The position numbers and the translations under genes were made by a program. DNA of 64,000 nt from an uncultured Gemmatimonadales bacterium (lineage in GTDB: Bacteria; Gemmatimonadota; Gemmatimonadetes; Gemmatimonadales; GWC2-71-9): the NCBI GenBank assembly GCA_963709905.1, contig CAVPYI010000006.1, forward strand, positions 148,761-212,760, given 5' to 3'. The notes beneath the pieces are model-generated. The model was not told the DNA's origin and searched no databases. It was given only the letters and a program-made list of their open reading frames with translations. This document shows, one piece after another, positions 13,363 to 13,472 of this stretch (positions are counted from its first letter, which is position 1; every line of letters starts with the position of its first letter).

Positions 13363-13472
13363 CTCGGCGGCTTGGCGGCTCGGCGGCTCGGCGGCTTGCG
13401 GCCTGGGGGAAATGAGTGTCTCTCGACGCCCGCCACCCACACGAGCCGCCGAGCCGCCGAGCCGCCGAGCCG
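13363..13472. repeat. palindromic octamer-array element, copy A: (CTCGGCGG)n - spacer - (CCGCCGAG)n
   Basis: Left arm is ctcggcgg cttggcgg ctcggcgg ctcggcgg. Right arm is cgagccgccgagccgccgagccgccgagccg. The arms are reverse complements separated by about 40 nt. Confidence 0.75.

Follow-up and report, generated by a model that had tools for sequence, protein, structure and literature searches.

An octamer-array hairpin between lepA and a GT9 heptosyltransferase gene in a Gemmatimonadales genome, and a possible translational relay across it

In the genome of an uncultured bacterium placed within the Gemmatimonadales, a gene of the GT9 heptosyltransferase family follows lepA, the gene for elongation factor 4, and a long palindrome of octamer repeats lies between the two. 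The only start codon available to GT9 lies inside this palindrome, which raises the question of where that start came from and how ribosomes might reach it. The original prediction took the palindrome for the second copy of an octamer element in the window (the whole 64,000-nt stretch of DNA that was analyzed) and proposed that the element had supplied the GT9 start codon. To answer the question, we analyzed the junction itself, the repeat class to which it belongs, and the orthologous junctions of related genomes.

The lepA/GT9 junction

The features of the junction are collected in Table 1. The TGA stop codon of lepA occupies positions 13357-13359, and the first unit of the left arm begins 4 nt past it. 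The four full units of this arm (13363-13394) read CTCGGCGG CTTGGCGG CTCGGCGG CTCGGCGG and are followed by a degenerate fifth unit, CTTGCGGC, at 13395-13402, while the distance from the four full units to the right arm is about 50 nt. The right arm consists of three perfect CCGCCGAG units (13446-13469) and CCGACG. The inverted arms are 94-96% complementary over 28-32 nt, and the RNA minimum free energy (MFE) of positions 13355-13485 was calculated as −101.6 kcal/mol, compared with −59.8 ± 4.0 kcal/mol for shuffled sequences (z = −10.5). Sequence, arm complementarity and fold thus confirm the predicted long hairpin of four octamer units, a spacer and opposed units. The sequence likewise bears out that the right arm adjoins the conserved N-terminus of GT9, since the codons ACG CTG GTC ATC CAG (TLVIQ) begin at 13473 and the arm abuts the conserved LVIQTAHLGD core. 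That the palindrome is the second of its kind in the window was also correct. The arms of the sister copy are found in related metagenome contigs as well. With up to two mismatches allowed, the window contains 18 occurrences of the 16-mer CTCGGCGGCTCGGCGG, compared with an expectation of 0.81 from shuffles. Elsewhere in the window, back-to-back heptamer arrays detected with TRF (GTGAGAA x3.4 and GCTGATA x3.7, positions 15545-15600) lie at the end of a ROK kinase gene and have no inverted partner.

Table 1. Features of the lepA/GT9 junction and related repeats in the window, and array hairpins at orthologous loci of other Gemmatimonadales genomes (L numbers).
Feature	Position	Strand	Evidence or content
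lepA (elongation factor 4) CDS	11560..13359	+	Pfam GTP_EFTU, EFG_C and LepA_C matches; ORF table; own gene call
SD-like AGGTGGA in last lepA codons (CAG GTG GAT)	13349..13355	+	sequence; putative SD function
18-codon mini-ORF in GT9 frame	13359..13415	+	translation of sequence; putatively expressed
Left (5', G-rich) arm	13363..13402	+	four CTCGGCGG-type units and a degenerate unit; sequence, repeat search, inverted-arm search
Locus-specific spacer	13403..13445	+	SD-like G run 13405-13409, TGA, GTG start, first 10 GT9 codons
Right (3', C-rich) arm	13446..13475	+	CCGCCGAG x3 and CCGACG; reads PPSRRAAEP(T) in GT9 frame
GT9 heptosyltransferase-family gene, 366 aa	13416..14516	+	PF01075, E = 1e-33; PDB 1PSW alignment; ORF
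Sister copy, same CTCGGCGG unit family	33357..33490	-	in-frame read-through inside ABC exporter ATPase domain
Solo CCGCCGAG array, in frame in uvrA	36329..36368	+	related contig spans array without gap
L016/L043 junction			unit GGGGAAC
L058 junction			unit GGGGAGA
L051 junction			unit GACGGTCA/GACCGTCC
L048 junction			unit GGACAGGC/GACCGTCC
L044/L059 junction			unit GTCGCGG
L055 junction			unit GTCGTGA
L003 junction			unit GCTATTC
L011 junction			unit ATTGACA
L007 junction			unit GAGTTCC
L008/L073/L045 junction			solo CTCGGCGG
Second upstream hairpin, L013	1071-1167
Second upstream hairpin, L025	1023-1133
Second upstream hairpin, L037	1038-1161
Second upstream hairpin, L048	925-1066
Second upstream hairpin, L055	839-1091
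Second upstream hairpin, L058	996-1097
Second upstream hairpin, L060	1019-1119
Second upstream hairpin, L005	1045-1121

The start codon GTG 13416 lies immediately 3' of an in-frame stop, TGA 13413-13415; between this GTG and the conserved core there is no further ATG, GTG or TTG. The ORF table and the translation agree with the original prediction that GT9 has no canonical in-frame start other than this GTG in the spacer. The leader that it opens (residues 1-19) reads MSLDARHPHEPPSRRAAEP, its last nine residues (PPSRRAAEP) being codons of the right arm. Residue 4 of E. coli WaaF (1PSW), where the beta-1 strand of that protein begins, aligns to residue 21 of the GT9 protein; GT9 enzymes therefore normally start two to three residues before this strand. 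Upstream of the GTG, at a distance of 6 nt, sits a G run (13405-13409) that could pair with the canonical anti-SD CCUCC carried by the 16S rRNA of the genome. In the MFE fold, inner stems take up most of this G run together with bases one and two of GTG 13416, and the model makes it plausible that the hairpin occludes the GT9 ribosome binding site, as had been proposed.

A short reading frame leads up to this start. Its ATG at 13359 overlaps the lepA stop (TGATG), it crosses the left arm, and it terminates at the TGA immediately 5' of GTG 13416. Three nucleotides (13356-13358) separate the ATG from the SD-like AGGTGGA in the last lepA codons, which was probably the ancestral ribosome binding site of a coupled downstream gene. 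The end of the mini-ORF beside GTG 13416 suggests relayed translation. The adjacency of stop and GTG and their common frame could also be due to chance, the frame match alone being expected in one case out of three.

The original prediction had also suggested that the element may terminate lepA transcription. No T-run or terminator-like site was detected between positions 12900 and 13900, where the right arm is followed by CCGACGCTGGTCATCC, and no sigma-70-like promoter was found at the locus. An intrinsic (Rho-independent) terminator was rejected, as the GC-rich hairpin is without a T-run. A search of Rfam gave no family match and returned generic miRNA-precursor hairpins only, at 18-37 bits against cut-offs of 60-168 bits.

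Array hairpins throughout the genome

The genome (4.40 Mb in 18 contigs, 68% GC, 91.8% complete) contains 310 CTCGGCGG arrays when up to two mismatches per 16-mer are allowed. Pairs of the form (CTCGGCGG)n-spacer-(CCGCCGAG)n within 250 nt number 58, against a single pair in the opposite order, and 43 against none when arrays of at least three units are considered. In a TRF survey of arrays with at least 2.8 copies, 604 period-7, 546 period-8 and 239 period-9 arrays were found, which fall into dozens of unit families; CTCGGCGG, with 162 TRF arrays, is the commonest of many 7-9 nt units in the genome. At least 250 pairs of inverted-unit arrays are present. Their polarity is fixed within each unit family (for example 44:0, 23:0 and 22:0), and G exceeds C in the 5' arm of 209 of 250. 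Among 29 hairpins built from other units in 0.5 Mb of 80 other Gemmatimonadales genomes, the 5' arm has more G than C in 25 and is G+T-rich in 27. A perfect 17-unit CTCGGCGG array was observed on contig C9 (C9:137981-138116). In several heptamer families (AAAGGTG, AAGTGAG, AAGGGTG and, for their G-rich strands, ACCGCTC and AGCTATC), the strand that follows stop codons itself carries a stop codon, which the period of 7 shifts through all three frames; the opposite strand is open.

Positions relative to genes were determined with a crude gene caller of our own (3528 genes), on which the following figures rest. The median distance from a stop codon to the hairpin was 2-3 nt and that from the hairpin to the downstream start 22-30 nt, and the lepA/GT9 copy obeys this rule of the class with its G-rich arm just past lepA. 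Hairpins were enriched between convergent genes (52/226 against a baseline of 11.5%) and rare between divergent ones. Isolated solo arrays whose G-rich strand is the sense strand of the adjoining gene numbered 151 and lay at a median of 6-7 nt from the stop; those oriented the other way numbered 68 and lay about 56 nt away. About a fifth of the copies (13/58 CTCGGCGG pairs and 14/73 solo arrays) lie in a frame that stays open and is flanked on either side by coding GC3, an in-frame residence exemplified by the ABC exporter and uvrA copies; the lepA/GT9 copy overlaps only the 5' end of GT9. A CTCGGCGG array is open in all six frames and reads LGGSAARR or PPSRRAAE in any phase. The unit has GG runs only, short of the four GGG tracts that define a G-quadruplex.

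For hairpins between co-directional genes, sense and antisense strands did not differ in stability (73 vs 72, p = 0.91), and no sense-specific G-U compensation was found genome-wide (520 vs 547 G-U pairs). Given this equality, arm complementarity looks like a property at the DNA level rather than the product of selection on the sense RNA. The CTCGGCGG x3 word is abundant in few congeners only (131, 144, 59, 25 and 21 matches) and absent from 22 of 31 genomes, so that units appear to bloom in particular lineages.

Spacer lengths range from 6 to 175 nt, the similarity of spacers in 1326 pairwise comparisons equals that of shuffled controls, and no enriched k-mer or common motif was found among the spacers of the family. 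The original prediction had seen a short core common to the spacers of the two window copies and had suggested a common origin. Formal alignment showed that only the arms are shared; the two spacers align with a local score of 15, which 36% of shuffles match, and the core is at chance level; a common origin of the two spacers was rejected. Of the claim that about 19 GT9 residues are encoded by the element, the 19-residue leader therefore stands and its being cargo of a mobile unit does not, the spacers being locus-specific. Fourteen hairpins have a predicted start inside the spacer. At C1:533443-533579, an SD and a lipoprotein signal peptide (MIMRNAMGGIFIFGVVLAGCGG) native to an RND adaptor make up the spacer, and orthologues in the same genus have such a signal peptide, mostly CGG-ended, without arrays. 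One of these orthologues has GEAEPAV where the right arm reads EAEPPSRRA, and GEAEPAV is a possible seed for the arm. The genes for MnmA and endonuclease III (Nth) show the layout of GT9, with a stop, the left arm, an SD and start in the spacer, and the right arm adjoining the conserved core. Both the native signal peptide and these layouts argue that the arms arise around native DNA. A fold-back origin of the whole element was considered and rejected, as the spacers are only weakly self-complementary (mean z −0.58; centre-anchored 0.466 vs 0.451, p = 0.07).

Candidate machineries of mobility were searched for by domain and by sequence signature. A REP/REPIN-RAYT system was rejected because no Y1 transposase was found, PF01797 being absent from the 91.8%-complete genome while control genomes matched. 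Telomerase- or retroelement-like addition, proposed in view of the polarity, was rejected in the absence of an RVT_1 (reverse transcriptase) domain from the genome. A word test of the flanks revealed no target-site duplication (3.60 vs 3.42 ± 0.10), and together with the unrelated spacers, which leave no conserved interior, this excluded a MITE. A resemblance to Rickettsia palindromic elements extends to residence in frame and ends at the single full-length consensus, only the arms being shared here. An autonomous parent element between long-range array pairs was likewise rejected: the genes so flanked are ordinary (a UPF0182-like protein, aminotransferases, a kinase) and no transposase is among them. 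On contig C7, a 10-unit and a 9-unit array (C7:63566-63645 and C7:66743-66814) stand in inverted order 3.1 kb apart around the UPF0182-like gene.

The junction in related genomes

The best matches of the GT9 protein are about 62% identical. The order lepA-GT9 was found in 76 of 80 loci, that is, in every locus where the end of lepA and the GT9 core could both be located. Wherever the scan located it, the C-terminal LQVD/E of lepA is conserved, and in plain junctions an overlapping or adjacent start follows. Where a junction has no repeats, the stop of lepA overlaps the GT9 start or is only a few nucleotides away from it (TAGTG, TGATG, GTGA, TAGGTG), which indicates that the ancestral state was translational coupling with a leader of 1-12 residues. 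The 19-residue leader is conserved in none of the orthologues, and in this respect the original prediction withstood the comparison.

Two sediment metagenome runs, X2 and X4, contain contigs about 95% identical to GT9, probably from a close relative, in which the hairpin between lepA and GT9 is missing. In these contigs 13352 is joined to 13473 through 30 other nucleotides, AGACTAGTGTCCAGCGCCAGGGGCCCGGGC; the junction reads ...Q V D TAG, a GTG overlaps the stop (TAGTG), and MSSARGPG-TLVIQ follows. The net difference between the filled and the empty site, 90 nt, is divisible by three. Beyond GTGTC..GCC (MS.AR), there is no alignment between these 30 nt and the spacer of the window, and GTG 13416 may be either the displaced native start or new sequence. 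The arms of the ABC-gene copy and the uvrA array are present in the same runs, which makes the lepA-GT9 copy the variable one. In the last lepA codons (13353-13359), four of seven positions differ from X2/X4, all synonymously (GTG GAT TGA vs GTA GAC TAG); divergence is locally higher beside the hairpin than in the flanks, which are about 95% identical. A search of X2 for further empty or filled sites on a hairpin-rich 19-kb locus yielded contigs that were too short and joints that were ambiguous.

Array hairpins occupy about 14 of the 76 orthologous lepA-GT9 junctions and solo arrays six more, with differing units (Table 1). An in-frame start lies within the junction spacer at L044/L059, L051, L007, L043 and L062. 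In the GT9 tree, the hairpin loci form small clades (L048/L055/L044/L059, L058/L016/L043 and L051/L062) in which the hairpin is kept and the unit changes, which points to turnover of array units in place. At L046, the 29-nt gap of a plain junction (GTGGACGGATCGTCCGGCCGTCCGACCGTCC; positions 2970-3000) resembles the GACGGTC hairpin of the sister loci L051 and L062 contracted to one unit. A second array hairpin, observed in at least eight other Gemmatimonadales genomes, lies some 1.9 kb upstream of the GT9 core, near the approximate place where lepA is expected to begin (Table 1), and our guess is that it marks another junction that is repeatedly occupied. In the window, lepA is preceded only by a plain 38-nt gap.

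Origin and working of the hairpin, and known systems

The reading of the junction as a mobile element that supplies a start codon proves only partly right. In its full form, it holds that a MITE- or RPE-like palindromic element inserted arms and spacer as a unit, with deletion of the native start, in place of which the element supplied a GTG. The occurrence of the same arms at 58 paired loci fits such an insertion, as do the empty site of the X2/X4 contigs with its 30 unrelated nucleotides, a net gain that keeps the frame, and the occurrence of CTCGGCGG in few congeners, which resembles a lineage-specific bloom. However, the spacers vary in length and share neither sequence nor motif, one of them is a native signal peptide, there is no signal of target-site duplication, the genome is without Y1/RAYT transposase or reverse transcriptase, and the long-range array pairs enclose ordinary genes instead of a transposase; we consider insertion as a unit unlikely. 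It is similarly doubtful that the hairpin is an old structure bound to the 3' end of lepA, serving the RNA 3' end by stabilising the mRNA or by terminating transcription without a U tract, with the overlap of the GT9 start incidental and tolerated and GT9 expressed perhaps at a low level or from another transcript. The position 4 nt past the stop, which is that of the class, the preservation of hairpins within clades at about 14 of 76 junctions while the unit changes, and the enrichment between convergent genes would suit such a role. Against it stand the missing T-run and terminator-like site, the lack of sense-strand bias in stability or G-U pairs, the empty site in the closest relative detected, and the copies inside coding genes, which cannot be terminators. 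A neutral insertion at lepA/GT9 that is simply tolerated is possible.

It is highly improbable that the junction is an artefact of assembly, or that GT9 is a pseudogene deprived of its start. The unique part of the spacer (13400-13441) was found in no unitig and in no indexed run, so the spacer comes from the assembly without independent read support, and signs of indel errors occur elsewhere, where our own caller spreads the gene for a UPF0182-like membrane protein (C7:63895-66643) over three frames. This split may reflect either assembly indel errors or real frameshifts and bears on the trust to be placed in homopolymer lengths. Homopolymer errors may be present near G5/A3 at 13405-13412; they would leave the GT9 start as it is and could break the mini-ORF. 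On the other hand, the unitigs of the best-holding metagenome run contain the joint of right arm and GT9 at 100% identity from 13446 onward, the same architecture recurs in many MAGs from other projects, and the GT9 ORF is intact, with a coding signal and a full GT9 domain.

On the sequence data, we lean towards the reading in which the lepA/GT9 element is a member of the genome-wide class of array hairpins that form around local DNA, and in which a relay keeps GT9 tied to the translation of lepA. Two opposed tandem arrays of a short unit would arise at the 3' end of a gene, the G-rich array on the sense strand just past the stop; the arms would be the repeated part, and the spacer between them locus-specific DNA rather than cargo. 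The ancestral overlap of lepA stop and GT9 start, and with it the coupling, would have given way to about 90 net bases of arms and spacer, leaving GT9 to start only at GTG 13416 inside the hairpin, with a non-conserved leader of 19 residues. A hairpin of about −100 kcal/mol that buries most of the G run and part of the start codon should allow only poor free initiation. The position of the old coupled start survives in ATG 13359, which overlaps the stop of lepA and has the conserved AGGTGGA in front of it. Ribosomes leaving lepA could re-initiate there and melt the left arm; after termination at 13413-13415 they could begin anew at GTG 13416. Relay through the 18-codon ORF would thereby keep GT9 expression coupled to lepA translation.

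A bolder proposal, to which we give little credence at present, is that an unrecognised strand-specific process in the Gemmatimonadales, and perhaps in Xanthomonas and Nostoc, lays G-rich arrays of 7-9 nt units on the sense strand right past stop codons, copies the current unit of a lineage to hundreds of loci and creates an inverted partner nearby without moving the intervening DNA, the resulting hairpins then being co-opted as translation gates that tie a downstream gene to its upstream neighbour. Since no transposase, RAYT or reverse transcriptase accounts for the spread, the machinery would be new if this were true.

As the junction illustrates, a boundary between tightly coupled genes can be taken over by a repeat hairpin of great stability, in which the downstream start is left buried. 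For a repeat class that has stayed unexplained since its description in Xanthomonas, it also provides testable rules: arrays adjoin stops with the G-rich arm first, spacers are native (demonstrated in at least one case), and units are lineage-specific and turn over in place. Annotation of start codons and N-terminal extensions beside such arrays requires care, and over evolutionary time the arrays steadily supply housekeeping proteins with in-frame peptide insertions (LGGSAARR/PPSRRAAE).

Several known repeat systems share parts of this picture. Mycobacterial interspersed repetitive units (MIRU) are reportedly intercistronic direct repeats of 40-100 bp; like the junction described here, they have small ORFs that overlap the flanking stop and start codons and preserve translational coupling, but they are direct repeats and not inverted octamer arrays. 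Rickettsia palindromic elements (RPE) are said to be tolerated in frame in housekeeping genes, where they add surface loops. The ABC exporter and uvrA copies are comparable in that palindromic repeats reside in frame, whereas RPE copies have a conserved full-length sequence and the present copies share arms around unrelated interiors. REP, BIME and REPIN elements, which are associated with RAYT transposases, are extragenic hairpin repeats that form inverted doublets just past stop codons. They too are species-specific in sequence and occupy the same orthologous gaps in different species; in the present case, however, there is no RAYT, the arms are tandem 7-9 nt units instead of one imperfect palindrome, and many families per genome occur, with many copies in coding sequence. 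Cyanobacterial STRR heptamers are a further example: they form abundant tandem arrays of short, lineage-restricted units that lie at gene boundaries. The TAACTGA direct heptamer repeats of Beggiatoaceae share these traits, but they are directed towards start codons and form inverted pairs almost never, in 1/170 sets (PMC4679880).

Among published systems, the convergent heptamer arrays of Xanthomonas come closest. Arrays of GGGAATC in Xanthomonas campestris and axonopodis and of GGGGA(C/T)T in Nostoc were described by Rehm et al. 2015 (PMC4692102), with 70-75 convergent array pairs per Xanthomonas genome that are able to form stem-loops; these arrays seldom lie between divergent genes, and no function is known for them. 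They resemble the class described here as dispersed tandem arrays of a short G-rich unit that follow the same stop-codon and strand rules, and in Xanthomonas the convergent pairs also have their G-rich strand inward, as do 43 pairs in forward-reverse order against none in the reverse-forward order here. In contrast to both, the present unit is an octamer without GGG tracts, to which the G-quadruplex idea is not transferable; dozens of unit families coexist, whole hairpins and solo arrays reside in frame inside genes, and some hairpins, like that between lepA and GT9, enclose start codons.
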